Source of the DNA: Clostridia bacterium
GTDB taxonomy: Bacteria > Bacillota > Clostridia > Christensenellales > Aristaeellaceae
Direction of reading: 5' to 3'
NCBI GenBank assembly: GCA_030529995.1
Contig: JAUMVT010000007.1
Coordinates: 4,170-68,169 of the forward strand
DNA: 64,000 nt
Part shown: positions 7,604-64,000 of the stretch, piece after piece
How positions within the stretch are numbered: position 1 is the stretch's first letter
How the letters are laid out: every line of letters starts with the position of its first letter
Notes under the pieces: model-generated
Seen by the model: the letters and a program-made list of their open reading frames with translations, nothing else
Database searches by the model: none
Told to the model about the DNA's origin: nothing
Translations under genes and position numbers: made by a program

Positions 7604-7615
7604 ACTGCAATCCGG

Positions 7616-11898: not shown

Positions 11899-11927
11899 AT
11901 CATAGCACAGGGCAAGGGGATTGTCAA
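11899..11927 (-). promoter_or_regulatory. Sigma70-type promoter of the met leader and operon
   Basis: Minus strand: TTGACA, 17 nt, TATGAT. Confidence 0.65.
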
Positions 11928-12001
11928 CAGGGAATCCTTGTTTTTCTGTTGTTTTTCATGAACGATTTTTGCTTTCTTTTGTTTTTCGTTTGCCTTTTTC
12001 A

Positions 12002-12030
12002 TTGCTTTCCGATAGAAAAAGTGATATAGT
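12002..12030 (+). promoter_or_regulatory. Candidate promoter of the BMP-family gene
   Basis: TTGCTT, 17 nt, TATAGT. It lies 43 nt upstream of the start. Confidence 0.4.
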
Positions 12031-12072
12031 CATATCAGTTACAAACCCCATTTGAAAGGAGTCTTCTCTCCC

Positions 12073-13194: not shown

Positions 13195-13221
13195 TCAGCG
13201 ATAAACGTTGGTACATCAAGG

Positions 13222-13259
13222 CTTCGAAGGAGCGGATTTCGCTCTTTCGAAGTTTTTTT
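13222..13259 (+). terminator. Intrinsic terminator
   Basis: CTTCGAAGGAGCG-gattt-CGCTCTTTCGAAG followed by TTTTTTT. Confidence 0.85.
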
Positions 13260-13300
13260 CTTGTGGAACTACTTTCTTTTGGAAGATGGGGAAGAAAACG

Positions 13301-13328
13301 TTGCGTGCTTACGTTTTCATGGTATACT
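13301..13328 (+). promoter_or_regulatory. Candidate promoter with extended -10
   Basis: TTGCGT, 16 nt, (TGg)TATACT. Confidence 0.45.
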
Positions 13329-13347
13329 ACCTAGTGAGGTGATTGAC

Positions 13348-47913: not shown

Positions 47914-50276
47914 TGATGAACGCCAAGGAACTGATCCGCCGGGGAGAAACCCTGCTGATGACCCGTGACCATGTGATGCTGGAGCAGGCAACGGCCGTGC
48001 AGCTTCATGACGCTCTGGCTTCTGCTGCCATGGAGGCATTAACGCCTACTTGGGTGAAGTGTGAGCAGAAGCGGCAGGGAAAGCGGCAGGCCTATTATCT
48101 GTCTGCCGAATATCTGGTGGGTCGCATGGTGTACAACAATCTGTTCTGCCTGGGTCTGCTGGAGGATACGAAAAAGCTGCTGGCAGAGCGGCATGTGGAT
48201 CTTGCCTGCCTTGAGGATATAGAGGACGACGCTTTCGGCAACGGCGGCCTGGGACGGCTGGCAGCCTGCTTCCTGGACAGTGCGGTAACCCATCAGGTGC
48301 CCCTGACCGGCTACGGCCTTCGATATCGTTACGGCCTGTTTAAGCAAAGCTTTGTGAACGGCAGGCAGCATGAAGAACCGGATGACTGGGCCAAGTGGGG
48401 AGATCCGTGGAGCATTCGCCGAGACGATCTTGCCGTAACGGTGGAAATGAAGACAGGCAATGTGCTGGCTGTGCCCTATGATATGCCCATCATCGGCTAT
48501 GGCGCAAAGAACATCGGCACCCTGCGCCTGTGGCAGTGCGAAAGCCTTCACGAAATTGATTTCCCTCTGTTTAATCAGCAGGAGTATGCCAAAGCTGCCG
48601 GGGACAAGAACAGGGCTGAGGACATTACCAAGTTCCTGTACCCCAATGATTCGAAGAAGGAAGGCAAGCAGCTGCGGGTGAAGCAGCAGTATGTGCTGGT
48701 GTCTGCCTCTCTGCAGGACTTGCTGCGCAGCTACAAGGCACGCCACGGCAGTGACTACGCTTTCTTCGCCAAGGAGCATGCGGCACAGCTGAACGATACC
48801 CATCCCGTGATGGCGATTCCCGAGCTGATTCGCCTGCTGGGGAAAGACGGCGTGGACTTTGAGACTGCCTTCGCCATTGCCCGGGAAACCTTTGCCTACA
48901 CCAATCATACGGTGATGCAGGAAGCACTGGAAAAGTGGGACTTGCCCCTGCTGGCCTCCGTTTGCCCGGAATTGGTGAAGGTCATCCGGCAGATTGATGT
49001 CCGCTTCCGCAAGGAAATGAAGGCAGGCGGTCATGAAGTGAAGGCGACCCGCTGTATCCTGTGGCCGAACCCGTGGAATACCAAGGTGACCCAGGTACAT
49101 ATGGCGCAGCTGGCCGTGTATGCCACCCATGCAACCAACGGTGTGGCGGCGATTCATTCCAAAATTCTGAAGAAGGACGTATTTGCGGACTGGTATGCCC
49201 TGTATCCGGAACGGTTCCAAAACAAGACCAACGGCATTACCCAGCGCCGCTGGCTGGGACTGTGCAATCCTGAACTGACCGCTCTGCTGAAGGAGAAGCT
49301 GGGCAACGAGGAATTCCTGACGGATCTGGACGAGCTGGCCAAGCTGAAGCCCATGATCGATGATGACCTGTGCAAAGCCTTTATGCAGGTGAAGCAGGAG
49401 AAGAAGCGTCAGCTGGCGGAGGAGATTCAGCGGAAAGAGGGCGTGACCCTGGATCCTGGCATGATCTTTGACGTGCAGGTGAAGCGGCTCCATGAATACA
49501 AGCGGCAGCTGATGAACGCTTTGTCCATTCTGGCAATCTACTACCAGCTGAAGGATGGCACGCTGAAGGATTTTACGCCCACCGCCTTCATCTTCGGTGC
49601 AAAGGCAGCCCCCGGATATGACCGGGCGAAGGCCATCATTCACCTGATCAACATGATTGCGGACAAGGTGAATGCCGATCCGGAAACCAATCAGAAGCTT
49701 CGTGCCGTGTTTGTGCAGAATTACAACTGCTCCTATGCGGAGAAGATCATCCCTGCTGCGGACATCAGCGAACAGATTTCTCCCGCCGGCACGGAGGCCA
49801 GCGGCACCGGCAACATGAAGCTGATGCTGAACGGTGCTGTGACCCTGGGCACCTTTGACGGCGCCAACATTGAAATTGTTGAGCAGGCAGGGGAAGAGAA
49901 TAACTACATCTTCGGCGCAACGGTGGACGAAATCAACGCCATGAAGGCAACCTATGACCCGAAGAAGCTCTATCAAGCGGATCCTCTGCTGCGCAAGGCG
50001 GTGGACAGCCTGATTGACGGCACCTTCCCCGATGACGACGGTATGCTGAAGGAACTGCACACCGCTCTGCTGGAAGGCGCAAGCTGGCACAAGCCGGATC
50101 ATTACTTCCTGCTGAAGGATTTCCGCAGTTATCTGGATGCGAAGCTGCGGGCTAACCGGGATTACCGTGACCACATGGCCTTTGCAAGAAAGTGCCTGAT
50201 GAACGTGGCCGGTGCAGGAAAGTTCTCTTCCGACAGAACCATCAAGGAATATGCAAAGGAGATTTGGAAGGTCTGA
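47910..50276 (+). CDS. glgP: Alpha-glucan (glycogen/maltodextrin) phosphorylase
   Basis: 4-nt overlap with malQ. PLP-lysine motif EASGTGNMKLMLNGA and the GNGGLGRLAACFLDS motif. Confidence 0.95.
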   Translation: MMMNAKELIRRGETLLMTRDHVMLEQATAVQLHDALASAAMEALTPTWVKCEQKRQGKRQAYYLSAEYLVGRMVYNNLFCLGLLEDTKKLLAERHVDLACLEDIEDDAFGNGGLGRLAACFLDSAVTHQVPLTGYGLRYRYGLFKQSFVNGRQHEEPDDWAKWGDPWSIRRDDLAVTVEMKTGNVLAVPYDMPIIGYGAKNIGTLRLWQCESLHEIDFPLFNQQEYAKAAGDKNRAEDITKFLYPNDSKKEGKQLRVKQQYVLVSASLQDLLRSYKARHGSDYAFFAKEHAAQLNDTHPVMAIPELIRLLGKDGVDFETAFAIARETFAYTNHTVMQEALEKWDLPLLASVCPELVKVIRQIDVRFRKEMKAGGHEVKATRCILWPNPWNTKVTQVHMAQLAVYATHATNGVAAIHSKILKKDVFADWYALYPERFQNKTNGITQRRWLGLCNPELTALLKEKLGNEEFLTDLDELAKLKPMIDDDLCKAFMQVKQEKKRQLAEEIQRKEGVTLDPGMIFDVQVKRLHEYKRQLMNALSILAIYYQLKDGTLKDFTPTAFIFGAKAAPGYDRAKAIIHLINMIADKVNADPETNQKLRAVFVQNYNCSYAEKIIPAADISEQISPAGTEASGTGNMKLMLNGAVTLGTFDGANIEIVEQAGEENNYIFGATVDEINAMKATYDPKKLYQADPLLRKAVDSLIDGTFPDDDGMLKELHTALLEGASWHKPDHYFLLKDFRSYLDAKLRANRDYRDHMAFARKCLMNVAGAGKFSSDRTIKEYAKEIWKV

Positions 50277-50328
50277 ACCTTACGCGGCTCGGAACCTTTA
50301 TCCAATCCTATCTTTACATGAAATGCAA

Positions 50329-50380
50329 GACCCGGCGGTTGAACGTGCTTGTATGCCGTTCCATCGCCGGGTCGTTTTCT
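50329..50380. terminator. Stem-loop between convergent glgP and ogt
   Basis: GACCCGGCG ... CGCCGGGTC 9-bp stem with a 27-nt structured loop, followed by GTTTTCT. Confidence 0.45.
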
Positions 50381-50391
50381 GTGAATGAGGG

Positions 50392-50928
50392 TCATGGTTC
50401 ACGCTTCTGCTTGGGCAAGCGCAGCCTACTGACATCGATGCCTTCCAGCTTCAGCAAGGCTATTTTTCGCTCAATACCGCCTGCATAGCCGGTGAGATTG
50501 CCTCCTGCACCCATGACACGGTGGCAGGGAATGATCAGGGAAATGGGATTATGCCCAACGGCGCCGCCAACTGCCTGCGCAGACATGGGGGAGCTGCTCA
50601 TTCGCCTGGACACTTCCACGGCAATCGCCCCATAGGTCATGGTTTGCCCGTAAGGAATGGCCGACATGATATCACATACCATCCGGCGAAAAGGAGAACC
50701 CGTAACCTGCAGCGGGGGAGTAAAGTCGGGCACGCTACCGGAAAAGTAGCCATCCAACCAACGCTTGGTTTCGGAGAAAATAGGAGTGTCAGCCGTCCGG
50801 CATGTGCCCGTAAATCCTTCCATGAAATGCGTTTGGCCGGAGAACCAAAGCCCCAGCAGTGCATGCTCGTTGCAGATCATGGTGATGAGGCCGAGAGGGG
50901 ATTCGTAAGAAGCGGTGAAGCAGGGCAT
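50392..50928 (-). CDS. ogt: Methylated-DNA--protein-cysteine methyltransferase
   Basis: Active site IPCHRV. Start trimmed to MPCFTASYESPLG behind GAAAGGAG. Confidence 0.9.
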   Translation of the reverse strand: MPCFTASYESPLGLITMICNEHALLGLWFSGQTHFMEGFTGTCRTADTPIFSETKRWLDGYFSGSVPDFTPPLQVTGSPFRRMVCDIMSAIPYGQTMTYGAIAVEVSRRMSSSPMSAQAVGGAVGHNPISLIIPCHRVMGAGGNLTGYAGGIERKIALLKLEGIDVSRLRLPKQKREP

Positions 50929-51028
50929 GGAAGCACTCCTTTCAGGGGGATAAGGGGAGTATAGCACAAAAAAGAGAAGCAGAAGAGGCATTCTGCAAGC
51001 AAATGTTGTAAAAGGTTACGTGTATGTG

Positions 51029-51168
51029 ACATGAACGACGAGCAAACGCATCAAGCTAAGTTATTGTCGAAAACTGATTTTGCGAGTGTTCGTATTCGTA
51101 ACAATGGCGAAAAAACAAGCAAAATGCTAGATTTATCGATGCAGATGAGAGGATTACATGAACGATGA
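51029..51168 (+). repeat. Two copies of the 13-mer ACATGAACGAYGA, 127 nt apart, in an AT-rich intergenic region
   Basis: Copies lie at 51029-51041 and 51156-51168. Each contains an ATG opening a short ORF that begins MNDE (45 and 35 codons). Confidence 0.8.
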
Positions 51169-51223
51169 AGGAAGGACATGTTCCCATAACGAAAACAGAA
51201 GTGTGACATTTTCGTTACTTTTC

Positions 51224-51237
51224 AAAAAAAAAAAAAA
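51224..51237 (+). repeat. Homopolymeric A14 tract
   Basis: Fourteen consecutive A residues, 20 nt upstream of the predicted -35 of the vWA/tubulin-like cluster. Confidence 0.95.
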
Positions 51238-51256
51238 GATTCATGTAATTTTTCTA

Positions 51257-51285
51257 TTGAACTGACAGCGGTTCTCTGCTATAAT
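51257..51285 (+). promoter_or_regulatory. Candidate sigma70-type promoter of the five-gene cluster
   Basis: TTGAAC, 17 nt, TATAAT. It lies 111 nt upstream of ATG 51396. Confidence 0.5.
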
Positions 51286-51395
51286 CAAAAGGAATGATTT
51301 CCTTTTCTAGTCCAATGTTCTACGGCACGCAAAATGCAGGAGAAACTCCTCAGACGGCAGCGCCGCAAGAAGCACTTGAAGGAGGCAGCCCTGTC

Positions 51396-54300
51396 ATGAA
51401 GAGAATCCTGTCTGCTATGTTGATGCTATGCGTCTTTCTTGCCTGCCTGACGGGAACCGTTGAGGCGGACACCATGGCTGATACATCTGCCACATCCGGC
51501 ATTGATGTTGTGATTGTGCTGGATATGACGGCATCCATGGATGGCAGCAACAACCCGGATGCAAGGACGAAAAATGATGAGTACAATTATCGTCTGGATG
51601 CGGCAGCCATGCTGATCAGCATGCTGGACATGGATTCTTCCCGTGTGGCAGTGGTGCCTTTTGCATGGGAACCTTTTGAAGATCAGATTATTGACCTGAC
51701 GCCTGTGCCGGACAGCACCTCCCGCAACGAGCTTGTGCAGCAGGTGTATGCCCTGAAGGACTACGGCACGAAGCCGAACACCAATATCGGTGCTGCGCTG
51801 ATGCGGGCTAACCAGATCCTTCAGCAGCGGGATGATGTGGGGAATGAGCCCATGATCATGCTGCTGACGGACGGCAACAATGATATGTCCGGCTCAAAAC
51901 AGACAGTGACCAATTCTCTCCGGTGGGATAGCGCTAACCAAACCATCTACAGCGAAGGAACGCAGAAATATACCACGGATACTGCCAATGCTGTGACCAA
52001 AGAGGCCGTGAACTGCGCCTACACTTTGCAGTACCCGATTTATGCCATTGCTTTGAATGAAGATCCTGATACGGCAGCGGCAGGCGGTCTCTCCTTGCGT
52101 GCTATTTCCGAAGGCAGCGGACTGAGAGACGGCTGCCGGATGGTATCGAAAAACGATGCATCCAGCTTGCCTGAGTATTTCGCAGACTTCTTGGCAGCAC
52201 GGATTGGCTCCAGCGTGCAGCTCTCTGCTTCTCCCGAAAAGGTAGAGGGAATGGAGAACACTTATGAGGTTACCATCCCTGTGCTGAATCAGTCGGTGAT
52301 GGAAATCAATATCATCCTTCCTGTTCACTTGGCAAATGCGAAGGAAACCAGCAAGTGGGGTAAGGGCATTGACGCGTCCAGCATCAAAATGTATGATTCC
52401 GATGGTACACTGCTGTCCAACGCATCGGACATTCAGATTCTGCGCAATGACAACGCTCACTTTGCCATGGTGAAGGTACGCAATCCTCAGCCTAACGGAC
52501 TGTGGACCCTTCGATTCACCAGCAATACGGATCCTAATAACATCTCTTTCAACATTCTCTACAACTACAACATCAAGCTTCAGTCTTCCGTGGAGTCCAC
52601 AACCACTCGGGTGGATGGCTTGTATAAGTCTGACAAGCTGGAGATCACTTCCTGGTTTACCAATGCGGACGGATCCAAGGCATCTGACAGCAACCTTTAT
52701 GCGGATCACCGGGGAGAAGCAGGCTTCGAAGATTGGATGACCATTCAGGGCAGCTGGCAGCTGTATCAGGAACTGGATGGAAAGCGTACGCTTCAGCGAG
52801 AAGGCACCTTGCTTTCCGATGAGACGCTTCGCTGCTTCCATGCGGATGTGGATCTGAGCGAAACGATTCTGCAGGATGGCAATTATGTACTGGTGGTAAG
52901 CGCACAGGGCGCTGGCTTGAACCGCAGCGTGGAACAGAACTTTGTTCTTCTGAACCATGCACCGGAGGCCAAGGACTATGATATAACGCTTAACGTGAAT
53001 TCCACAGATGACACGGAAGACGCCGCGGCTACCTGGACGGTGGAAGGCACCTCCGGCGTGCTGCCTGTGAAGGTTCAGGATTTGGTGAAGGATGCTGACG
53101 GGGATCAGCTGAGCTATACCCTGAAGGCGCTGAACAATGCGGGCAGCATTGTTACCCTGGAAATGGATGAGAGCACCGGCACTTTCACATACCATACAGC
53201 CCAGGACGGCGATAAGCTGGCCAGCGGCGATGCAGTGTATACTTTGTACTATGATGACGGCTGCACAAACGGTGCAGGCAGCATGAACATAACGTTCCAT
53301 GTAGTGTCCGGCGTGGATGAAATGCAGAAGGCTTACACTCCTGTTGTGACAGTAAACGGTACGCCCGGCAATACGCCTGATACTTGGCTAAAGAATACGG
53401 ATCTCACCTTGTCTGTTCAGTTGAAGGACGTCAACGGCGGCTACGCTGATGCGGAGGTTCTGAACCGTTTGTCCGTCCGGGTGGATGCGGTGAATACCAC
53501 GGCGGATGAGAAGGTTTCCTTCACGGAAAATTCTCAGCAGGAAGACAGCCGAGACTTTACCATCAATACTGGCAACAAGGCTGCGACCATTGATGTGACG
53601 GTTACGATTGGCCTTTTCGATCCCATGAAGCTGACGGTGAACATCCCCAACCAAGAAGCACCGGTGGCAGCTGCATCCGGGGCGGCAACCATCTATTGCA
53701 ACGGCACTGATGTACCGTCCTTCCTGAAGGGACTCATTGGCGAAGAAACGTCTCAGGATGCGGCTGAGCTCAATGTGGATATCGAAGCGGAAAAGCTGTT
53801 TACGGACGCCGACAATGATGTTTTGACCTATGCGGCACCGACCTTTGCCCTGCCCGAAAGCGGTGCGGCGGCAGATGCGGCCATGATCACGGCTGAGAAG
53901 ACGGGGGAGAATGCCTACCACATCCTTGTGGACAGCAGTTCGACAGGCATATTCCATGACACCTTTACCGTCACCATGAACATTGTGGCCACGGATGGCG
54001 ACGGCGTGACTTCCGCCGTGCCTTATACCAAGACCTTGACCGTGGTGGATCTGCATAACAAGTTCCTGACCCTTGCGGTGATTGTTGGTATTGCACTGGC
54101 GGTACTGATTGTACTGATCCTGATCATCCATCAGCTGCGGAAGCCTCGCTTTGCAAGACTTGCTGTTTCGGTCACGGAAGCACCCAGTATGTATGAAACT
54201 TCTCGTCTGGAATTGCCCAACAGCAAGGCACCTGTGAATGCAATGAGGCTCGGCGTGAGCGGGGAGAATTGCGGCGTAAGCAACACACAGCTCCTGAATG

Positions 54301-54698
54301 TGCTGCTGAAGCCTAACCGTGCTTCGAAGACGATTGATGTGGTTTGCAAGAAGATTGAGCTGGATTACGAAATCACCATGAGTGAGAAAGCTTTGAAGGC
54401 AGGGAAAAAGGTACAGTGGCACTTGGATGGTGAATTGAAGATTCGCCGGATGAACGAGGAAAGTGCCCTTGTCTTGAAACTTTGCGAGAAGCAGGAAGAT
54501 AGTGGCATGACGGCCTTCATGGATAATGCAGGCGGAGCAGATGATTGGACAAGTGATGATCAAGGCTTCGAAAATGCAGCACCGAAGAAGAGCAAGCGTG
54601 TGAGCCGCTCCACGAGGAAGAATGCTAAGCAGGATACGCACGAGAATAATGTTGATGACTGGAACAATGGAGACGACAATGGCGGTTATGCGTTCTAA
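51396..54698 (+). CDS. Single-pass surface protein: signal peptide, vWA domain, Ig/cadherin-like repeats, TM helix and a roughly 190-aa cytoplasmic tail
   Basis: Start at MKRILSAMLMLCVFLACL behind GAAGGAGG. The MIDAS-type motif DMTAS in VVIVLDMTASMDG (51522-51536) and MIMLLTDGNN are present. DADGDQLSY and DADNDVLTY are cadherin-like motifs. TM helix FLTLAVIVGIALAVLIVLILII at about 54063-54131. Confidence 0.8.
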   Translation: MKRILSAMLMLCVFLACLTGTVEADTMADTSATSGIDVVIVLDMTASMDGSNNPDARTKNDEYNYRLDAAAMLISMLDMDSSRVAVVPFAWEPFEDQIIDLTPVPDSTSRNELVQQVYALKDYGTKPNTNIGAALMRANQILQQRDDVGNEPMIMLLTDGNNDMSGSKQTVTNSLRWDSANQTIYSEGTQKYTTDTANAVTKEAVNCAYTLQYPIYAIALNEDPDTAAAGGLSLRAISEGSGLRDGCRMVSKNDASSLPEYFADFLAARIGSSVQLSASPEKVEGMENTYEVTIPVLNQSVMEINIILPVHLANAKETSKWGKGIDASSIKMYDSDGTLLSNASDIQILRNDNAHFAMVKVRNPQPNGLWTLRFTSNTDPNNISFNILYNYNIKLQSSVESTTTRVDGLYKSDKLEITSWFTNADGSKASDSNLYADHRGEAGFEDWMTIQGSWQLYQELDGKRTLQREGTLLSDETLRCFHADVDLSETILQDGNYVLVVSAQGAGLNRSVEQNFVLLNHAPEAKDYDITLNVNSTDDTEDAAATWTVEGTSGVLPVKVQDLVKDADGDQLSYTLKALNNAGSIVTLEMDESTGTFTYHTAQDGDKLASGDAVYTLYYDDGCTNGAGSMNITFHVVSGVDEMQKAYTPVVTVNGTPGNTPDTWLKNTDLTLSVQLKDVNGGYADAEVLNRLSVRVDAVNTTADEKVSFTENSQQEDSRDFTINTGNKAATIDVTVTIGLFDPMKLTVNIPNQEAPVAAASGAATIYCNGTDVPSFLKGLIGEETSQDAAELNVDIEAEKLFTDADNDVLTYAAPTFALPESGAAADAAMITAEKTGENAYHILVDSSSTGIFHDTFTVTMNIVATDGDGVTSAVPYTKTLTVVDLHNKFLTLAVIVGIALAVLIVLILIIHQLRKPRFARLAVSVTEAPSMYETSRLELPNSKAPVNAMRLGVSGENCGVSNTQLLNVLLKPNRASKTIDVVCKKIELDYEITMSEKALKAGKKVQWHLDGELKIRRMNEESALVLKLCEKQEDSGMTAFMDNAGGADDWTSDDQGFENAAPKKSKRVSRSTRKNAKQDTHENNVDDWNNGDDNGGYAF

Positions 54699-54728
54699 AT
54701 AATCTTGAATTGAAAAGGGGATCGTGTC

Positions 54729-57700
54729 ATGGCTGAGCAGAAGTTCGATATTTCCATTGAGCGGGTTGAAAAGATTCCTGTTCCGTTGCTGGTGATTGGA
54801 TTGGGCGGCACAGGCTGCGATGCGCTGAAGGCAGTGAAGCGTACCTTTGCCGAGCGGTATGTGCTGCCGGTGAATGCGGATGGTCAGACCCAGGCAGCAC
54901 CGCCGAAAACGGCCTATCTGGGTTTTGACAGCCTGAGTGAACGACCGGACGGCTTGGAAATCAACGAGTATGTGGATATTTCCATTGCCGGCATGGATAA
55001 GATCCTGACCAATCAGGATACGCTGCTCCAGCCCTATGAGCGGTCATGGGTCAACCGTGACCTTCGCCATGAGGCTGCCGGCCTTGGCATGGGCACTGTC
55101 CGTCAGGCTGCCCGACTGGCTCTGTGCCGAAATTACGACAAGGTAACCAATGCACTGAGAGGCGCATTGAACAATATTGTCTCCGTTGCCGCGGGTGCTC
55201 CCGGCAGCCCGGTGAATCGTATTGAGATCGTGATCCTGACAGGCATCAGCGGCGGTACGGGTTCCGGCACCTTCTTGGACATGGCACAGATTGTGCGCTA
55301 CGTTGGTTCGCAGGTGTCCCAGTTGCCGGTGCGTATTACAGGCTATCTTGTCATGCCTGATGTTTCGCTGGAGAGAGTCAAGGGTGCTTCCGGCATGGAG
55401 GATCCCATCAAGCACAATGCGTATGCTGCCCTGAAGGAACTGGATTTCTGGATGCGCGTGAAGGACCATGAAGTTCCTTACACCATGCAGTACAATGCGA
55501 CAACCAGCATTACCTGGAGCGAGAAGCCTTTTGACAGCTGCCTGCTGATGAGCTCTACCAACACGAAGGGCCTTCCTTATAAGGATGGCTATGAAGCCGT
55601 CATGAATACCATCGCCGAAAACCTGATGCACTACATGGCGCATGAGGATGGCGTTACCACCCAGTATTCCTATCGTCAGTATGAGGACAACCTGGGTGCC
55701 ATCCAAATCAGTAAGCGGTATCCGGCGTTCTATGGCTACCGGGCAATCGGTGCCTTCACCAAGCGGATTCCGAAGAAAGCTTTGCTGTACTACGAAGGAA
55801 AACGCCTGCTGTCTACCTTTATTCCCCTGCGGGACAGCAAGGGCGTTTTACAGCCTGACCGCCGCATGTTCACGGATGGACAGGGAGAACATCGGGCACA
55901 GCAGATTATCGGCTCCGGCGGACAGATGATGCAGGATTTCCGCACTCGCATTTGCCGGTTGCCTTCGTATTGCTCTACCGACTTGTCTGATAAGATTAAG
56001 GTCTCTGAAGTTCAGAATATGAATCCGCCAGCCCATAACCGCTGGCACCAGCAGCGGAATACGGATTGCGCTCCTGCGGCTTTGAAAGCATCGGAAAAGT
56101 ATCTGAACGAGGCATGGAATCGGTTTGTTCAGTTTGCGAATACTGTTATTACGGATCCGGAACAGGGACCCTTTGCACTGCGGCTTTATCTGGATGATGT
56201 ATCCGGCCTGCTTTCCGAAATGAATAAAACCTTGGAAACGTGGACAAGCTATAGAAATAAGTTCCGTAAGGAAATTAGCCAGTGGGAGGAGACTTGCAAG
56301 AGCAGCTTCGGGAATTTCTGCCATCCGCCGCTTCTGGGCAGAAAGACCGCGCTGGAAACCTATGACCATGCTCTTCGTTCTCTTTACACGGCTGTGTGGA
56401 ACAGTGAATTCATGGAGTGCTATGTGCCTGCGCTGGAAAAGCTGATTCTTCGGGTGAAAGAATATCTGGCCGATGGCTTGAAGCCTATGTGCAACACCAT
56501 CGAGAAGCTGGAAGAAGAATTCAACACCATCGAATCCACGGATACTACCCTGGTGCAGGATATCTATCAGCTGGATGATGTGAAGGGAAAGATTGATGAA
56601 GTCTTTACTGATGCAAACGCTAATAACCGGCTGGCCGTTTCCTTCCTGCAGGAAGTAACGACCATCTCCATGCTGAATGCGCCCAATGTGGACAGTAAGT
56701 CCTCCGGCGTTATGTTCCTGTGTCGCAATGCAGGGCTTGAAAAGCTCTGCGGCATGCTGCAGCAAAAATTGACGGAAACCTACGGGGATGTGAACGATCA
56801 GTCTCTGGACTCCATCATGGTAAGCAATGTTGGAGAGGACATCGCCAAGCAGCAGCAGTGGATGAATCGCCTGGCCACCGAGGTACTGGACAGTGCAGTG
56901 CCTATGTTTATGCAGGATGCGGTCTTCCAAAGTGAGGACAAGGCACCCTACAGCTATATGTCCATTCCTTACAATGCGAAAAAGCACATGGAGTACATCA
57001 GCGAGGCGTTTAAGACCCATGATCCTGCGGTAGAGCCGAAGGAAAGCTCCCTGAAGGATCACATTTATTGCTTGAACACCTGGGATAAGCTGCCTCTGTA
57101 TCGCTATGGCAAAATGGAAGAACTGCGGACGACCTATGATGCCGACCTGAATAAAGACGGCGCATCGAAGGGCATGCACTTGGTGTGCAACGGTGATCCT
57201 AACGCCAGCTACCAGTCGGACTGGACAAAGCTTCCTTCGCCCAAGCCTTATTTCCTCTTCCCGGGAACCGGCACGCTCAGCGAGCAAGCCCAGTATGAGC
57301 ACGTGAAAGATCTGGTGCGGGATGGTATGGCATGCGGCATGGTAGAAGTTTCGACGGATAACCCCGTCGTTTCGGTAAAGGTTCACCTGCAGTATGCGCC
57401 GGGTACGAACGCTTTCAAGACCTCTGAAACCATGCGTCAGGATCGGGCGGTGATTGTGGCTGAGAAGAATCCTGCCACAGGGGCACCTTACACGAAGGCG
57501 GAAATCGGAGAAAAGCTGGCGGCTTACCTGAACTCCGGAAAAACAGTCTATTTGGAGGAGAAGGAAGTTCGGCCATCGCAGCTGGCCAATGTACTTGGCT
57601 TAACCAATGAGCCCTGCGATCCCTTTGATGTTACTGTTCAGGCGGATATTGCGGCAATGGCAAAGGCCAAGGAAAACCATGCAAAGCTGTGCGTGGCGAT

Positions 57701-58310
57701 GGCTGAGGCAATTATTTACCGCCGCCCGGACATGATGCGTGCGATTGAAATGCAGCTGCCCGCTGTGAAGGAGATCCGCAAGGAAGCGGAGGAAGCGGCA
57801 AGAATTGCGGCTGCATGGAAAAAACGCAAGGAGTTTGCTCCGGAGGCAGCAGAGCTGTTTATTTTCCTGAACGATGTAATTTCCTTGGGCGGTTCCGGCT
57901 ATCGCTACAAGTACAAGGGCGAAAAGTACGATATGGTGAGTGAAAACCTGCTTGCTGACGACCTGAAGGACGTTTCTGACTATGTGAAGGTCATTGCTTT
58001 CCTGGCCGAAGTTCCTGAAAGCAACAGCACGAAGGCAACCTTGACGCGGATGCTGAAGGATGCCAAGGATGCCTATGACACGGCGGTAGATGGGGAGACT
58101 GTAACGGCTGAAGAAATGCAGGATCTGCTGGATGCTGCCAATGATCTGAAGGACGAAGCGGATGAGGAAGCAGTGAGGTTGGAGCATGAAACGCACAGCA
58201 ACCCCAGCGAGGCAGATGCGCTGACGTATCAGATGGAACTGATGCAGGCATTCAGTAAAGCAATCGAAAAGAACATAAGAAGCTTTAAGAAAATTCAAAA
58301 GGGTCTGTAA
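54729..58310 (+). CDS. Giant tubulin/FtsZ-signature GTPase-like protein (Tubulin_2 / FtsZ-like family candidate), 1193 aa
   Basis: AAGGGG SD. PLLVIGLGGTGCDAL (T1-like, nt 54798-54815) and ILTGISGGTGSGTFLD (T4 tubulin signature, nt 55251-55271) lie about 150 residues apart. The C-terminal region is long and mostly helical. Confidence 0.7.
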   Translation: MAEQKFDISIERVEKIPVPLLVIGLGGTGCDALKAVKRTFAERYVLPVNADGQTQAAPPKTAYLGFDSLSERPDGLEINEYVDISIAGMDKILTNQDTLLQPYERSWVNRDLRHEAAGLGMGTVRQAARLALCRNYDKVTNALRGALNNIVSVAAGAPGSPVNRIEIVILTGISGGTGSGTFLDMAQIVRYVGSQVSQLPVRITGYLVMPDVSLERVKGASGMEDPIKHNAYAALKELDFWMRVKDHEVPYTMQYNATTSITWSEKPFDSCLLMSSTNTKGLPYKDGYEAVMNTIAENLMHYMAHEDGVTTQYSYRQYEDNLGAIQISKRYPAFYGYRAIGAFTKRIPKKALLYYEGKRLLSTFIPLRDSKGVLQPDRRMFTDGQGEHRAQQIIGSGGQMMQDFRTRICRLPSYCSTDLSDKIKVSEVQNMNPPAHNRWHQQRNTDCAPAALKASEKYLNEAWNRFVQFANTVITDPEQGPFALRLYLDDVSGLLSEMNKTLETWTSYRNKFRKEISQWEETCKSSFGNFCHPPLLGRKTALETYDHALRSLYTAVWNSEFMECYVPALEKLILRVKEYLADGLKPMCNTIEKLEEEFNTIESTDTTLVQDIYQLDDVKGKIDEVFTDANANNRLAVSFLQEVTTISMLNAPNVDSKSSGVMFLCRNAGLEKLCGMLQQKLTETYGDVNDQSLDSIMVSNVGEDIAKQQQWMNRLATEVLDSAVPMFMQDAVFQSEDKAPYSYMSIPYNAKKHMEYISEAFKTHDPAVEPKESSLKDHIYCLNTWDKLPLYRYGKMEELRTTYDADLNKDGASKGMHLVCNGDPNASYQSDWTKLPSPKPYFLFPGTGTLSEQAQYEHVKDLVRDGMACGMVEVSTDNPVVSVKVHLQYAPGTNAFKTSETMRQDRAVIVAEKNPATGAPYTKAEIGEKLAAYLNSGKTVYLEEKEVRPSQLANVLGLTNEPCDPFDVTVQADIAAMAKAKENHAKLCVAMAEAIIYRRPDMMRAIEMQLPAVKEIRKEAEEAARIAAAWKKRKEFAPEAAELFIFLNDVISLGGSGYRYKYKGEKYDMVSENLLADDLKDVSDYVKVIAFLAEVPESNSTKATLTRMLKDAKDAYDTAVDGETVTAEEMQDLLDAANDLKDEADEEAVRLEHETHSNPSEADALTYQMELMQAFSKAIEKNIRSFKKIQKGL

Positions 58311-58415
58311 GCCTGCGTAGATTTTTATAGAAAAGCGCAGGGTGGTGCCTTCAGGACAGGTCGCAGGTGCGGTCTGCCCTGAAGGTCTATCACCATATAG
58401 GAGGAACGAGGGACA

Positions 58416-60950
58416 ATGACGATCAGCACAACGGCTGCAAATATTGTTGTTCTTTATGGCGATGAAGCCGCAAAGCATTTTGTGGATTTGGTGAAGCAGT
58501 GGGATAAACTGCTCAATGCAGATGGATGGGCATCCCTGTATTTTTTGATTGTATCCAGCCATGACCAGGAGTACAATCAACTGACCCAAGAGGAATGGAA
58601 TCGTGTTAGTCCGATAACCACCTATCTTAACATTAATGAGCAGCCGCTATCAACAAATGAGTACGCTGAAATTGCGTGGAGGTTGCCGAATGCGGGCAGC
58701 CCTAAGCTCCATCTGATTTGCGCAGCCGGACGTGAGCACTGTACCTATGATTGGCTGGAAAGCTTCACGCAGAATGTGCTGAAGGACGATGTCCATTTCA
58801 CCCAGTTCTTGCTCTATTATGTGCTGGGGAGAGACAGCCTGCCGGATGAAAAGAATGGCATGCATCGTGTGCTGCAAACTATTCAGGGGCAGGGGCATCA
58901 TGACCATGTGTTCCTCATTGGTGATACGGATGACGGCGGACAGAAAGTGAACAGTGATGCCATGTGGAATGCACTGTATCTGTCTGCCGTAATGAACTGT
59001 GCCGATAAATTGCACCTGAGCACAGAAACCTATTCGGTGGGCTATTCCGTGCTGAATGCGAATGGCAGCGAATTGGAAAACCTTCGCTTAGCCGCTTCGT
59101 GCCTTGCCGTGCAGGAACGCTTGCAGGAGGGAGAACTGTCGTCAGCTGAAGCGGTACCTGCTTTGCTGCCATCGGGCGTGGCAAGCGTTTCGGCACTGGA
59201 AGAGTGGCTAAAGAAAACAGTGCGTGAGTCTGTTCGCATTGCGAAAAGCGATTTCGGTAATGCGTGGATCACCATTCGCATGGATGCAGACCTGGATGAA
59301 ACGGAAACGTGCAAGCGCCTGAAACGGTTCGTTGACATGAATTATTGTCAATCGGCAACGATGGCTGAACGGGCGGAAAGCTTTGCACAGCAGGTGAAAA
59401 ACGAAGTTGTGGACCGGTTGTGCCGCACACCGAAAGCGGCGATTATGCCTGCGTCTGCAGCCGGCGACATTGCGTCTGCATTGGAACGCATGAGCAAGGA
59501 CGATGTACCGGCTATTCGGTGCACCTTCGGAAAGAAGCCTTTCCTCAAAACAGCAGGCAGGATGTCTCAATACGTGGAGGAAAACAAAGAAGCGGCTTTT
59601 AAGGCAGCAGGAACGCATGCAATGCAGCTGAATATGCAGACATATGCAAATGCTCTTGCCCAGGCATATCGGTCAATTGAAGAGTGGCTCAACAGAATGC
59701 ATTCCGGGAAAGTACCTGAAATGGACATCGTTGCTTATTTGCAGCGCAGAATGAGAAAGCTTGAAAAACCGGAGTCGGGGAATACGGACTATCTTCGGAC
59801 AAAGAAATATCCCAAGTATTGGAAGGAGCTGACGAATCTCCACCCTGCATTGCAGGAAATTACAGAGAACATGGAAAGCGAAGCCCAATACTTTGATGAA
59901 AACGGAAATTATGTGGAAGCAGGATGGGAAAGCCTGCTTGCCAGCGCACAGCAGGTGCTGAGAGACCAACTGCCGGGACGTATGAGCCTAAGATTCTTCG
60001 ATGTGCTGCACGCGGAGTTTGACGATGAAAAGCTGACGGAGTTCTTTGCGGATTACCTGAAGCCTGGTCGGCGCATGTATTACAATATGAGGGCGATTGT
60101 AGGCAATGCGCAGTCTTTCTATCTGGTGGATGAAGATCTGGCGAGTGCCTGGAAAAATGCGCCGGAAGGCCTTTTTGAAGTGCAGACGGATAACGCTGAG
60201 AATCTGACCCTGTATCCGATTGAGGGAAGCGGGGAGCAATCCTGGATCCTCGACAGCGGAGAAGCCTATTTTCATGGCGCAAGCATGGGCAGACTTTCCA
60301 AGCTGGCAGACCGGGAACAGGGTCAGTCTCCCGTGACAAGCCAGAGGAAAATCAGTAACCTTGCTTCTTCTCAGAAAGCACACTCGGCTCCTGCGGAACG
60401 CCATGAAGAAACGGATACGCATGGACTAAAACTGCAGCCCAATGCTCAGAATCATTACATGCTTTCCTGGGATTGGCAAGGCAATGATCAGCTTGCAAAA
60501 ATTACAATTACCCAGCTTGGTGAGCAAGTGGGATTTGATGTTGTTGATGTGAAGACGTTCAAGAAAAACAACGGGCAATTTGACGTGACGGCAAAAATGA
60601 TGGGTGGGAAGCCGATTCCTTACGGAGAATTGACAGTTACCATTTACTCAGGAGAGGGGAAGACCCCCTACATTGACCGTGCAACAGTGATGGGAAGATG
60701 TGAACAGGTCAACTATAGCATAAAGGGTAGCAAATTAGAAATGAAACAAGCTGCGCCCGGTGTGCTGAATCGTGTTGCATTGCGGATTACCAATAAGGAA
60801 GGCAAGTGGCTGTACTATCCTTTGTATGCAGGCAATGAGGATCATCCGTATACCTTTGAAAGACTGAATTTGGATGATGCTAAAGTTGTTCAGGCACCGA
60901 CAGAGCAAACGGACAGCAAAAAGGTACCGATCTTTATTCAACAAGTTTAA
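58416..60950 (+). CDS. Hypothetical 844-aa protein, possibly a nucleotide-loop-degenerate paralogue of the upstream tubulin-like protein
   Basis: AGGAGG SD. NIVVLYGDEAAKHF and HVFLIGDTDDGGQKV sit at the same positions and spacing as the GGTG loops of the neighbouring gene. The C-terminal domain is beta-rich. Confidence 0.7.
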   Translation: MTISTTAANIVVLYGDEAAKHFVDLVKQWDKLLNADGWASLYFLIVSSHDQEYNQLTQEEWNRVSPITTYLNINEQPLSTNEYAEIAWRLPNAGSPKLHLICAAGREHCTYDWLESFTQNVLKDDVHFTQFLLYYVLGRDSLPDEKNGMHRVLQTIQGQGHHDHVFLIGDTDDGGQKVNSDAMWNALYLSAVMNCADKLHLSTETYSVGYSVLNANGSELENLRLAASCLAVQERLQEGELSSAEAVPALLPSGVASVSALEEWLKKTVRESVRIAKSDFGNAWITIRMDADLDETETCKRLKRFVDMNYCQSATMAERAESFAQQVKNEVVDRLCRTPKAAIMPASAAGDIASALERMSKDDVPAIRCTFGKKPFLKTAGRMSQYVEENKEAAFKAAGTHAMQLNMQTYANALAQAYRSIEEWLNRMHSGKVPEMDIVAYLQRRMRKLEKPESGNTDYLRTKKYPKYWKELTNLHPALQEITENMESEAQYFDENGNYVEAGWESLLASAQQVLRDQLPGRMSLRFFDVLHAEFDDEKLTEFFADYLKPGRRMYYNMRAIVGNAQSFYLVDEDLASAWKNAPEGLFEVQTDNAENLTLYPIEGSGEQSWILDSGEAYFHGASMGRLSKLADREQGQSPVTSQRKISNLASSQKAHSAPAERHEETDTHGLKLQPNAQNHYMLSWDWQGNDQLAKITITQLGEQVGFDVVDVKTFKKNNGQFDVTAKMMGGKPIPYGELTVTIYSGEGKTPYIDRATVMGRCEQVNYSIKGSKLEMKQAAPGVLNRVALRITNKEGKWLYYPLYAGNEDHPYTFERLNLDDAKVVQAPTEQTDSKKVPIFIQQV

Positions 60951-60977
60951 CGGATTGAGATAGGGAGGAATGAAATA

Positions 60978-62471
60978 ATGGAAGTAAGCCATGTATGCCC
61001 TTATTGCGGTAAAGAAATTGACGTTGAAGAGATTCTCTTTTGGACGAAGAGCAAGCAGCAGTTTGATGATCCGCTTCGTGCTGGTTTTTTGCGCAGTCAT
61101 GGTGTGACAACCGGTGAAAAATTTGCCCGAGTGTATTTTAAGCCCTGTTTTGACGGAGAACGTAAAAACGTCATTAAGGTGGACTGCAATGATTATTATC
61201 CCACCATGCTGGAGGATGCGCGCTCCAATGGCCTTTCTCCGAAGCAGCTTGAAGGTAAGGACGATGCCTTTGGCGATGGTGACGATGATACTTATGACGA
61301 TGAATACAGGACGCAGCGATCCAATAGTAAAAAGAAAACAACGGAAGAGAAGTGCAGAATTGTTCAAAGAGCGTGCCCCCATTGCCATTGCGAGCTTCCT
61401 CAGGGATTTGGCGTACTGCCGGTTCATCATGTGGCCATGTTTGGCATTCGTGCCGCAGGAAAGACGGCCTATTTGGTGAACCTGTTTCAGCAGGTGAACG
61501 CCCAATTGAGCAATAATAATTTAGGCTCCGTGATGCTGGCAGAGGACAGCAAGCTTTTTCTGCAGCCGCTGATTGAAACGTACGAGGACAGCGGTAATAC
61601 AAAGGCAACGACGGCGGATAACGGTCTGCTGCCTATTGTGTGTCAGTACAAAAATGGCGGAAAAGAATCTTTTATCGTTTTTTATGACATTGCAGGAGAA
61701 GCTGTAACACAGAGCGATTATATGGCAAACCATAAAGGTATTCAGAACTGTGAAGCGCTTTTGATGATGATTGATCCTAACATGCTTACTTCAGGCGCAT
61801 TTGCAGCTGCATGGGAGAATGCGCATGGAGCTGGCAGCGAAGATATGATATATCCTACGATTGATGCATTCCTGAATGAAGCAGGGGTGATTTGTCAAGA
61901 TTTTGCCGACCATCTGAAGTCCATTGTTTGCGTGATTACCAAAATGGATATGGTACTGGAAAAGGATTCTGACCTGTTTGGCGGAGCAAACAGCAAACTG
62001 GAAATTACGACGGATATCGGCAAAAAGCATCTGAACCATGTTAACCTTCGCGTCCTAGCAGAAGTACGGAATAATTTGAATACTTTCCTGCAAAAGCAGT
62101 ATAGTGTGAACCTGAGCAAGAAGATTCATGATACCTTCGGTCAGGATCGTCAGGTGTATCTGCTGGGTGTTTCTACCTCTACGCGGGTGCCATCAGCCCC
62201 CGGCAATTCGAAAATCTGCTTTGAGCCTAAGAATTCTGCTAACGATCCCAAGCATCGAATCATTGAACCTTTCCTGGTGATTGCAATGACCTTTGGCCTC
62301 GTCAGCGGTGTGGATGATAAAGGCGATGTGAAGTGGTTCACAGGCAATGTGAAGCTGCCTGAGCGTGAATCGACTGCTGAGACCCCGCAGAAGCAGGAAA
62401 AGAAGGAAGCCGGACAAGCAACGAAGAAAAAGAAAGGCTTTTTCAGCAGGCTCTTTGGAGGCAGAAAATGA
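60978..62471 (+). CDS. Zinc-ribbon-containing P-loop GTPase with a C-terminal amphipathic membrane-targeting helix
   Basis: GGGAGG SD. CPYC (C7/C10) and CPHCHC (C133/C136/C138). G1 GIRAAGKT (61443-61466), G3 DIAGE (61686-61700) and G4 TKMD (61938-61949). Tail KKKKGFFSRLFGGRK. Confidence 0.75.
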   Translation: MEVSHVCPYCGKEIDVEEILFWTKSKQQFDDPLRAGFLRSHGVTTGEKFARVYFKPCFDGERKNVIKVDCNDYYPTMLEDARSNGLSPKQLEGKDDAFGDGDDDTYDDEYRTQRSNSKKKTTEEKCRIVQRACPHCHCELPQGFGVLPVHHVAMFGIRAAGKTAYLVNLFQQVNAQLSNNNLGSVMLAEDSKLFLQPLIETYEDSGNTKATTADNGLLPIVCQYKNGGKESFIVFYDIAGEAVTQSDYMANHKGIQNCEALLMMIDPNMLTSGAFAAAWENAHGAGSEDMIYPTIDAFLNEAGVICQDFADHLKSIVCVITKMDMVLEKDSDLFGGANSKLEITTDIGKKHLNHVNLRVLAEVRNNLNTFLQKQYSVNLSKKIHDTFGQDRQVYLLGVSTSTRVPSAPGNSKICFEPKNSANDPKHRIIEPFLVIAMTFGLVSGVDDKGDVKWFTGNVKLPERESTAETPQKQEKKEAGQATKKKKGFFSRLFGGRK

Positions 62472-64000
62472 ATATCGATGTGCAGTATTACATTGGCGGC
62501 GATACGCCAAAGTCAGGCTTCGGTGTCATTGGCAGATCGGATAACTTTCATGAAGACGCTGATACGCTGTGGATCAACCATGGCAGTGAAGTGGAGGATC
62601 GTTCCCGTATTGAACCGACTGATTACAGACAGCCGGATAGCCTTAGCAGACTCTGTCATGTATGGGAGTATCAAACGGATTCCTTTGGCGCGCCTGCCTT
62701 CATCTCTTCTTATGTGGGAATCAGCAATCGAGGCCGATTTCATGGCTTTGCGGAATACATTATGCCGGAGCTGGATCAACCGGTTTCTCAAATTGCCGCG
62801 GCAGGGCAGATGATCGATGCAGCTGCCCGGCTGAATACGCTGGATTTTTACGAGTTCTGGGAAACGGAAAGCACGCCGATTCCGCCTCGGGATTATGTCC
62901 TTGCCATTCGGGATGTGTTGCCTGCTGCCTGGATGAAGAACGGGAAAATCGATGAGACGTGGCTGCTGACGCTGGTGAGCCGGTACTGGGAAAGCGCATC
63001 CCGGCGAGCGTTCTCCCAAGGATCCTTTCGGCCGGTGCTTGTATGCCTGGGAGAATTTGCGGAAGAAAAGCAGGAAGATATCGATTGTACAATTGAAAAG
63101 GCGAGAGCATTCTATGCAACTGAGATTGCGCCCAAACTGCCGGCGCAGGTGCAGAACATTACTTCTTTTGCTGCCGGTGTGGATTGCCGGGATGTAATTG
63201 ATCGCTTGAATTCTGCACTGCTTTTCTGCATTGATGAAAACCTGAACGTCGAAGATGCACTGCAGCTGGATGAACCGAAGGCGTTGGGGCAGTATAAGCT
63301 TTGCCCGGCAGAAATGAACTTCATCCAGGATGTGGCAAACGGGAAAACACCAACGCTGGTAGCTGAGGTGATGAAGCAGTATCAAGCATTGCACCCTGAT
63401 GCAAACTTGGATATGCATCAAATTCCGTTCATGTCGGATTATCGAGTCTGGTATCAATTATATTGTGTAGAACATCTGATCCAAGATGGCTCGGCGTTCT
63501 TGCAGCAAGCAAATCTGGATATAGAAGAAAATGAAGAGGATAAGATTCGCATTCGTCCGGCACGCTCCTACTTTCTGCTGATGAATGAGCTGCGGGACGT
63601 GTTCCTTGATCATAGCAAGGAGGTCAAGAAGGCAGAGGTTGACGTTCTGCTGAAGGGGTGCGAGGAAAAGCTTCTTCAAATGATGCTGGAAAGCATGCAG
63701 GCTCAAGATGCAAAGCCCTTTATTGTGCGCCCTTCGGAAATGCGCATGTGGCATGCGAAGATTCTTGCGACCCCTTATGAGGAATTGGCTTCGCTGATGA
63801 TGCAGCTGCTTACCATGGATCAGAAGCTGCGGGCGGAAATGCTGAGCTTCATTCGGGCTTTGCCAAGCACGAGAATGAGCGAAACCACGGATGAGCGCAA
63901 TGCGGCGCTGATGAGATCTCTGCTGGAAAATTGTATTCGTCCGCTGATTGAGCACGAACTCGGAAAAGAAAAAATTGCCGATGAATCTCCGCTGCGGAAC
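62468..64000 (+). CDS. Hypothetical protein, fifth gene of the cluster, with its 3' end outside the window (more than 511 codons)
   Basis: Not in the supplied ORF track. ATGA start/stop overlap with the GTPase gene, with GGAGG 6 nt upstream. I read the frame stop-free to 64000: MNIDVQYYIGGDTPKSGFGVIGRSDNFHEDADTLWINHG... The composition looks protein-like, unlike the antisense ORFs. Confidence 0.7.
   Translation, partial: MNIDVQYYIGGDTPKSGFGVIGRSDNFHEDADTLWINHGSEVEDRSRIEPTDYRQPDSLSRLCHVWEYQTDSFGAPAFISSYVGISNRGRFHGFAEYIMPELDQPVSQIAAAGQMIDAAARLNTLDFYEFWETESTPIPPRDYVLAIRDVLPAAWMKNGKIDETWLLTLVSRYWESASRRAFSQGSFRPVLVCLGEFAEEKQEDIDCTIEKARAFYATEIAPKLPAQVQNITSFAAGVDCRDVIDRLNSALLFCIDENLNVEDALQLDEPKALGQYKLCPAEMNFIQDVANGKTPTLVAEVMKQYQALHPDANLDMHQIPFMSDYRVWYQLYCVEHLIQDGSAFLQQANLDIEENEEDKIRIRPARSYFLLMNELRDVFLDHSKEVKKAEVDVLLKGCEEKLLQMMLESMQAQDAKPFIVRPSEMRMWHAKILATPYEELASLMMQLLTMDQKLRAEMLSFIRALPSTRMSETTDERNAALMRSLLENCIRPLIEHELGKEKIADESPLRN

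Follow-up and report, generated by a model that had tools for sequence, protein, structure and literature searches.

Why does a member of the Clostridia encode a tubulin-like protein of 1193 residues amid a fixed set of receptor and GTPase genes, and what does the set do? The question is raised by the second gene (gene 2) of a conserved, co-directional, seven-gene operon in a stretch of 64,000 nucleotides (the window) from contig JAUMVT010000007.1 of a Clostridia bacterium (GenBank assembly GCA_030529995.1). Here, we report that the product of gene 2 is a real, very divergent relative of tubulin and FtsZ, belonging to the family Tubulin_2 (Pfam PF13809), also named FtsZl1. It is probably an active, GTP-binding member of the superfamily, as its motifs and fold suggest. 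For the operon, we lean, with more confidence than doubt, toward a GTP-driven, self-assembling scaffold that lies under the membrane, is controlled by a GTPase, and is tethered by receptor tails.

Both the family and the operon have already been described computationally (PMC2875224, PMC7159879). FtsZl1 was defined by Makarova & Koonin in 2010 from a set that included the Firmicutes Clostridium kluyveri and Brevibacillus; its genes were linked to those of vWA proteins and of a divergent, TxKD-containing P-loop GTPase, and also to OmpA and membrane proteins, and a role in membrane remodeling was proposed (PMC2875224). GTPase-centric "conflict systems" built on DO-GTPases and GAP1 were described by Kaur, Burroughs, Iyer & Aravind in 2020 (PMC7159879). 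In their GAP1-N2 type, about half of the neighborhoods, in Firmicutes and Actinobacteria only, hold tubulin-domain proteins with a helical C-terminal region, together with extracellular vWA proteins and fibronectin type III (FNIII)-repeat proteins, and regulated assembly of cytoskeleton-like complexes was proposed (PMC7159879). The operon reported here is their "tubulin theme," which in Firmicutes comprises two tubulin-domain genes and two vWA genes (PMC7159879). A phylogenetic study of 2023 used Tubulin_2 proteins as an outgroup only.

The family assignment follows from Pfam, where the gene 2 protein matched PF13809 with an E value of 1e-46 and 160.3 bits, far above the cutoff of 27 bits, over model positions 1 to 352 of 356. 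This result, together with the NCBI name of the named homologues ("tubulin-like doman-containing protein"), bears out the Tubulin_2 membership proposed in a first-pass annotation made from the sequence alone; the canonical tubulin profile PF00091, which that annotation had also put forward for searching, gave no match at an E value of ≤0.01. A search of 5.8 billion proteins returned >260 homologues from metagenome-assembled genomes (MAGs) of Clostridia, Eubacteriales, and Aristaeellaceae, most of them about 1200 residues long and matched over their full length.

The fold was assessed with an AlphaFold2 model of the full-length protein built from a 76-sequence alignment (mean predicted local distance difference test [pLDDT] score, 88.8; predicted template modeling score, 0.72). 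With this predicted structure as the Foldseek query, all of the top 50 matches in the PDB belonged to the tubulin superfamily. The best was CetZ2 (4b45; E value, 3.5e-5; probability, 1.00), accompanied by TubZ (2xka and 2xkb), many FtsZ structures (target-normalized template modeling score, about 0.5), BtubA, and gamma-tubulin, at sequence identities of 8 to 17%. Across TubZ, CetZ, and FtsZ, E values ran from 3.5e-5 to 1e-3, target-normalized template modeling scores from 0.41 to 0.53, and identities from 12 to 17%. Among the viral models of BFVD, the best Foldseek matches were phage FtsZ or tubulin.

Neither the protein by itself nor the 76-sequence profile brought up a tubulin or FtsZ match when PDB sequences were searched with HMMER; because HMMER links the family to no PDB sequence, no member of FtsZl1/Tubulin_2 has a solved structure. 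The superfamily is reached by profile-profile and structure comparison only. Compared by hhalign with an FtsZ profile of 11 sequences (Escherichia coli plus ten plasmid or chromid records), the 76-sequence family scored a probability of 84.7% and an E value of 6.7e-6, with the T1 loop, strand S2, and the T3 and T4 loops collinear at high posteriors. Against E. coli FtsZ alone, three short collinear matches (T1, T3, and T4) were obtained at low probability. A profile match and a structural match to the tubulin fold were both found, and clearly, and on this point the first-pass annotation stands.

The nucleotide-binding loops of the first half of the fold are well preserved (Table 1). As already read in the first-pass annotation, a hydrophobic strand (PLLVI) directly precedes the T1 loop GLGGTG. 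Conservation was counted in the alignment of 76 homologues, which are 29 to 89% identical to the query: G24, L25, G26, G27, and G29 are present in all 76 and T28 in 72. The T4 signature SGGTGSG, collinear with GGGTGTG of FtsZ, is nearly as constant (G175, G178, and G180 in 76/76; T177 and S179 in 74/76). In the 64-kb window, translated in all six frames, it is found a single time, and 2e-5 matches were expected by chance from the composition of the gene 2 protein. The first-pass annotation had recognized this signature and misplaced the segment around it, quoted as residues 170 to 181: ILTGISGGTGSGT, which contains SGGTGSG, occupies residues 169 to 181. In the T3 region, R125 and R129 are invariant.

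T1 and T4 are 150 residues apart, as first noted, compared with about 130 in tubulin and 89 in E. coli FtsZ. The spacing is tubulin-like, as had been claimed, and relative to FtsZ about 60 residues of inserts are needed. Inserts between T1 and T4 were remarked for FtsZl1 by Makarova & Koonin (PMC2875224).

The order of secondary-structure elements in the AlphaFold2 model corresponds to FtsZ element by element from S1 to H9. It begins with S1 (residues 20 to 25), H1 (26 to 43), S2 (61 to 67), S3 (81 to 83), H3 (125 to 151), and S4 (165 to 172). Next come H4 (177 to 196), S5 (201 to 208), H5 (224 to 242), an inserted hairpin (252 to 262), and S6 (270 to 274), and then H7 (287 to 302), a loop, H8 (314 to 324), S7 (337 to 346), and H9 (349 to 361). 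Posteriors in hhalign were low beyond T4 (0.1 to 0.7 for the two motif pairings there). The conserved P210-D211 (as MPD) was aligned to IPND in the T6 loop of FtsZ (posterior, 0.3 to 0.7), and by element order it would be T5. KELDFW, in which K236, E237, D239, F240, and W241 are invariant, was weakly paired with the T7 motif NVDFAD of FtsZ and lies inside a helix in the model. The second acidic candidate, YSYRQYEDNL, follows a conserved helix, TIAENLxHY (residues 294 to 302; A296 and L299 invariant, E297 in 75/76). E319 is kept in 75 of the 76 homologues; at position 320, 51 have D and 14 have N. By element order, TIAENLxHY may be the core helix H7 and E319, within YEDNL, the T7/H8 acid.

The Pfam domain appears to include equivalents of H7, H8, S7, and H9, and the fold may retain some of its C-terminal half. 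No FtsZ_C match was found, in line with the absence of an obvious FtsZ C-terminal domain noted at first. In the element order of the model, H9 does not run on into the other half of the activation domain, S8-H10-S9-S10; as speculation, a well-conserved beta-alpha-beta-beta unit at residues 739 to 788 might complete the sheet.

The extension of about 830 residues that follows consists of long helices of 36 to 61 residues (439 to 474, 494 to 531, and 538 to 598), alpha/beta modules, and an acidic helical tail (1100 to 1192). It is conserved over its whole length in the homologues and gave no match beyond noise in Pfam, the PDB, or BFVD. The acidic helical end seen in the first-pass annotation was recovered: the last 98 residues are helical in the model and have an isoelectric point of 4.5, with 22 D+E against 12 K+R.

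Table 1. Features of the operon within the window (positions in nucleotides, counted from the first letter of the window; aa, amino acids)
Feature	Positions	Strand	Basis or remark
Gene 1, single-pass (type-I) transmembrane vWA receptor	51294..54698	+	Pfam, hydrophobic segments, orthologues
Gene 2, tubulin-like (Tubulin_2 / FtsZl1), 1193 aa	54729..58310	+	ATG start
Tubulin_2 domain, tubulin/FtsZ GTPase fold, aa 21-362	54789..55814	+	PF13809, Foldseek, hhalign
T1 loop GLGGTG, aa 24-29	54798..54815	+	Conserved; aligned to FtsZ GVGGGG, posterior 0.9
T3-like loop GLGMGTVRQAAR, aa 118-129	55080..55115	+	Aligned to FtsZ GLGAGANPEVGR
T4 tubulin signature SGGTGSG, aa 174-180	55248..55268	+	Fits [SAG]GGTG[SA]G
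P210-D211 after strand 201-208, T5 or T6 loop equivalent	55356..55361	+	76/76 conserved
KELDFW, aa 236-241, first T7-like catalytic acidic motif candidate	55434..55451	+	
YSYRQYEDNL, aa 313-322, second T7/H8 acidic motif candidate (YEDNL, 318-322)	55665..55694	+	
C-terminal extension, aa 363-1193	55815..58307	+	AlphaFold2 secondary structure
Intergenic spacer, two strong stem-loops	58311..58415	+	105 nucleotides between genes 2 and 3
Gene 3, 844-aa cytoplasmic partner	58416..60950	+	AlphaFold2, Foldseek, operon position
Gene 4, DO-GTPase, TRAFAC-class P-loop GTPase with N-terminal Cys knuckles	60978..62471	+	
Gene 5, giant helical protein, N-terminal 511 aa, cut by window end	62468..64000	+	

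The operon encodes, in order and with the sizes seen in the related loci, a vWA receptor, the Tubulin_2 protein, a protein of ~840 residues, a GTPase of ~490 residues, and proteins of 1070 to 1668, ~160, and ~900 to 1100 residues. Genes 6 and 7 and most of gene 5 lie beyond the window end and are known from related contigs only; the source contig itself ends shortly after that point. The genes are linked by short spacers and by translational coupling (an ATGA overlap), and a Shine-Dalgarno-like AAGGGG stands just 5' of the gene 2 ATG. Five related loci share this gene order, and the tubulin-like proteins they encode have 33 to 84% identity to the query where measured. Two receptor-like membrane proteins, a P-loop GTPase switch, and three cytoplasmic partners of large size are the fixed company of the tubulin-like gene. 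The four cytoplasmic proteins of the operon have no transmembrane segment, and the tubulin-like protein is placed in the cytoplasm because it has none. NCBIfam gave nothing for the operon genes and Rfam nothing for the region.

Gene 1 matched Pfam VWA (E value, 1.7e-9) and VWA_2 at residues 71 to 237, with a motif resembling a metal ion-dependent adhesion site (MIDAS), DxTxS, at residues 77 to 81 (DxSxS in orthologues). Its hydrophobic segments are a signal peptide (residues 34 to 56) and a transmembrane helix (922 to 949); about 650 residues resemble beta-sandwich repeats, judged by eye from the sequence, and the cytoplasmic tail has about 185 residues. The tail (54080 to 54695) keeps in orthologues a juxtamembrane HQxRKPRF, a beta-rich module of ~110 residues, GGxDDW, a basic stretch, and a terminal acidic-aromatic D-W/F, motifs that look like docking peptides for cytoplasmic partners. 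The first ATG of gene 1 (51294) adds 34 residues that are lacking in the close orthologue at locus L001. Orthologues begin at the methionine of MKRIL (M35), with a GGAGG Shine-Dalgarno sequence upstream and the signal peptide directly after, and the true start is probably M35 at 51396. A good sigma-70-like promoter match was noted at 51257 to 51285 (TTGAAC, 17 nucleotides, and TATAAT, with an upstream TG).

The spacer between genes 2 and 3 folds with a minimum free energy of −42.2 kcal/mol (z = −3.9 against shuffled sequences); its stem-loops are not followed by a T-run, and Rfam matched nothing there. One possible role is that of an attenuator within the operon, another that of an mRNA stability element; either may give genes 1 and 2 a different dosage from genes 3 to 7.

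Gene 3 was modeled by AlphaFold2 (pLDDT, 86.5) as an N-terminal domain that is Rossmann-like but lacks nucleotide-binding motifs, a helical middle, and two C-terminal FNIII/immunoglobulin (Ig)-like beta-sandwiches. No Pfam family was matched, fn3 included, and the beta-sandwiches gave Foldseek matches to FNIII domains with E values of 5e-3 to 5e-2. The N-terminal domain matched the Rossmann domain of glucose-6-phosphate dehydrogenase (E value, 7.7e-4) and several TubZ and gamma-tubulin chains (E values of about 1e-2). As a candidate degenerate tubulin paralogue, gene 3 has TubZ and gamma-tubulin among its matches, but the dehydrogenase domain scores better, and three profile comparisons with the tubulin-like family yielded a nonsignificant match in the helical region only. 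The family is small (67 representatives among 1.84 billion proteins), and at each of the five related loci the gene occupies this place in the operon.

Gene 4 matched Pfam DO-GTPase2 (PF19993) with an E value of 2e-7 and 31.4 bits (cutoff, 27). Its sequence contains the Walker A motif GIRAAGKT, the Walker B motif DIAGE with its Glu, TKMD, and the zinc-ribbon-like Cys knuckles CPYC and CPHC. A scan of the GTDB genome collection with gene 4 found two close relatives only, both from poorly classified MAGs. In the close relative L007, the DO-GTPase frame is split into two overlapping open reading frames (ORFs; 10001 to 10540 and 10137 to 11495), which is either an assembly frameshift or a pseudogene.

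The start of gene 5 overlaps the stop codon of gene 4 (ATGA), the position at which GAP1 is expected. Neither gene 5 nor its orthologues matched any Pfam family, and a homologue search with the 511-residue fragment returned only itself. The orthologues are 1070 to 1668 residues long, with about five tandem helical repeats of ~100 residues at residues ~700 to 1250 (L007, 11492 to 16498), and variation in repeat number may account for the range of lengths. Gene 6 encodes a small protein of ~160 residues in the related loci. Gene 7 encodes a second receptor-like, type-I membrane protein, whose L007 orthologue has a signal peptide and a transmembrane helix.

How would these parts make a scaffold? 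The N-terminal 362 residues of the gene 2 protein, with the motifs and fold described above, would bind GTP through the T1, T3, T4, and P210-D211 loops. Subunits would then join head to tail, the acidic motif of the next subunit (YEDNL or KELDFW) completing the GTPase site. The extension would decorate the polymer and dock partners, including the acidic-aromatic peptides of the receptor tails. The DO-GTPase would act as the switch that licenses assembly when a ligand is bound by the extracellular vWA or Ig-like domains, and the net result would be a regulated sub-membrane scaffold. For the output, biological conflict or phage response (PMC7159879) and membrane remodeling (PMC2875224) have been proposed. 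It could be a threshold-type conflict response, membrane remodeling, or surface coupling.

Several results weigh against a polymer-forming conflict system of this kind. In FtsZ and tubulin, hydrolysis coupled to polymerization requires the T7 loop and the activation domain at the C terminus, and in the gene 2 protein neither has a confident assignment, the hhalign posteriors after T4 being low. T6-H7 was likewise not identifiable in FtsZl1 for Makarova & Koonin (PMC2875224). No GAP1 Pfam match was obtained at an E value of ≤1 for the gene 5 fragment and four full-length orthologues; gene 5 could be a GAP1 too divergent to detect. No obvious toxic effector domain was found in the operon, and PADLOC-DB v2 matched none of the five operon proteins that the window encodes and none of three neighboring ORFs. 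The flanks in four loci are metabolic and hold no defense islands. The operon has one Tubulin_2 gene and one Pfam-recognized vWA gene, against two Tubulin_2 genes in the Firmicutes of Kaur et al., and the related locus L004 has two. Finally, the literature on FtsZl1, Tubulin_2, and DO-GTPase systems yielded computational and phylogenetic papers only and no experimental study, as the first-pass annotation had supposed.

The two Tubulin_2 genes of L004, a more distant relative, are adjacent (7261 to 9873, 870 residues; 10001 to 14224, 1407 residues). The shorter paralogue keeps T1, T4, and KELDFW, whereas E297 and N298 are replaced by K and T. YDSTL stands where the gene 2 protein has YEDNL, with Asp at position 319, so that an acid is kept. 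PF00091 matched an L004 paralogue in the T4 region only, below the cutoff. The pair suggests that in some systems unequal subunits form a heteropolymer.

If an FtsZl1 polymer acted with the vWA protein and the GTPase to deform or sever membrane, the assembly step of the scaffold reading would be shared and the output alone would differ. Such a machine, remodeling membrane or forming vesicles, was the original proposal for the family, drawn from the vWA, GTPase, OmpA, and membrane proteins to which it is linked (PMC2875224). It agrees with the membrane anchoring of two of the seven operon proteins and with the failure to find a toxin-like effector or a defense-island context. We nonetheless hold it to be unlikely: no membrane-binding amphipathic helix and no ESCRT-, dynamin-, or BAR-like component was detected, and the membrane proteins, whose extracellular vWA and Ig-like parts are large, resemble receptors or adhesins more than remodeling factors.

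The assembly step has as its main rival a GTPase that does not polymerize, the tubulin fold serving as a monomeric or dimeric switch or a fixed scaffold while the C-terminal region does the work and no filament forms. This reading stays alive because the T7 loop and activation domain have no firm assignment: T6-H7-T7 could not be aligned confidently, and the region contiguous with H9 lacks S8-H10-S9-S10 by the element order of the model. In addition, an appendage of 830 residues might hinder protofilament packing. It must, however, be set against two conserved acidic motifs that follow conserved helices at T7-like positions (E237/D239 invariant, E319 in 75/76), and against nearest structural neighbors (CetZ, TubZ, and FtsZ) that all form filaments. 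To our knowledge, every characterized branch of the tubulin superfamily polymerizes, and a nonpolymerizing switch seems quite unlikely to us.

A bolder version of the receptor-tethered scaffold is a prokaryotic counterpart of integrin-to-cytoskeleton linkage. Two single-pass receptors, at least the first of them with an extracellular MIDAS-type vWA domain, would bind a phage, a host glycoprotein, or a neighboring cell, and their tail motifs would recruit a GTP-driven tubulin-family polymer gated by the Ras-like DO-GTPase. Gene 3 would supply a non-nucleotide-binding, tubulin-derived subunit paired as alpha- is with beta-tubulin, and the activation domain would be split by a helical insertion of ~375 residues. 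The operon yielded no evidence for a role in adhesion or motility, and we offer this version as a long shot.

Barely credible is a cell division FtsZ paralogue or a TubZ-like DNA segregation motor. The fold is common to all of them, and TubZ and CetZ are the nearest structural neighbors. The gene 2 protein, however, has no FtsZ_C domain and no PF00091 match at an E value of ≤0.01, and its gene lies outside the dcw cluster. A small TubR-like gene is absent from its setting, which is neither plasmid nor phage, the flanks being glycogen metabolism and ogt, and it is always linked to receptors and a DO-GTPase instead. A chance glycine-rich motif in an unrelated protein was ruled out by the expectation of 2e-5, the Pfam E value of 1e-46, the fold match, and the conservation.

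Upstream of the operon lie a glycogen/maltodextrin phosphorylase gene (47910 to 50276, plus strand) and an ogt methyltransferase gene on the opposite strand (50392 to 50991). In the syntenic part of L001 (1 to 6200), genes for an ABC permease, an alpha-amylase, and a GH77 protein come before the phosphorylase. This neighborhood is ordinary core metabolism, not a defense island. Flanking genes vary among the related loci, the close relative L001 excepted. The G+C content is 0.47 to 0.53 across the operon (50001 to 64000) and 0.52 to 0.59 upstream (1 to 50000); the lower value and the differing flanks are consistent with the operon having been acquired horizontally as one block. A copy on contig CAVGBO010000071.1 (L006), with a GTPase 86% identical to the query, belongs to a bin labeled Phocaeicola dorei. 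All other taxon-named relatives of the operon are Clostridia, and the label is probably a MAG binning error.

No branch of the tubulin superfamily is more divergent than FtsZl1/Tubulin_2, for which neither experimental data nor a solved structure was found. The locus adds no new concept; it provides a well-conserved representative from gut Clostridia, compact at seven genes, and structures predicted with high confidence for two of the operon proteins. It also singles out residues predicted to bind nucleotide (G27 and G178) and candidate catalytic acids (D239 and E319). If the proposed scaffold is real, a receptor-coupled cytoskeletal polymer would be a new bacterial use of the tubulin fold, and it would bear on the proposed role in conflict systems.

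Among the closest known systems are other FtsZl1 proteins. They share with the gene 2 protein an FtsZ-like domain at the N terminus with T1 and T4, family-specific inserts, a coiled-coil/helical region, a helical C-terminal region, and a length of ~1000 to 1200 residues, and they likewise stand in operons with a vWA protein, a divergent P-loop GTPase (TxKD), and membrane proteins. The sub-clade of gut/rumen Clostridia differs in its fixed seven-gene operon and in having neither a protein kinase nor an OmpA partner, and nothing essential is different. Equivalents of H7, H8, S7, and H9, which the 2010 analysis did not find, are suggested here by the AlphaFold2 model.

With GAP1-N2 DO-GTPase systems, the operon has in common a DO-GTPase2 protein that bears Cys knuckles at its N terminus and the Walker B glutamate, a tubulin protein with a helical C-terminal region, and a Firmicute host. 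A transmembrane-anchored extracellular vWA protein, a component with putative FNIII-like domains, and a large protein directly downstream of the GTPase are also shared. It departs from them in that this downstream protein has no Pfam GAP1 match, that no YtkA-fused vWA was detected, and that the N-terminal domain of the FNIII-like protein is Rossmann-like, or perhaps a degenerate tubulin-like one.

TubZ, CetZ, and FtsZ have the same fold and the T1, T3, and T4 nucleotide-binding loops, whereas the gene 2 protein is 3 to 4 times larger, is unrelated to them by HMMER, and has a T7 loop that is not clearly conserved. Unlike FtsZ, it has no FtsZ_C match and no division-cluster context (a C-terminal peptide was not specifically searched for). 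Unlike TubZ, it has no adjacent gene for a small DNA-binding TubR-like protein and no tubC partner, and its context looks chromosomal. Integrin-cytoskeleton linkage and CglB, the vWA adhesin of Myxococcus focal adhesions, offer a conceptual analogy only, with no homology beyond the vWA fold: an extracellular vWA MIDAS on a stalk, a single transmembrane helix, and a short docking tail, encoded with a cytoskeletal NTPase and a small-GTPase-like switch.

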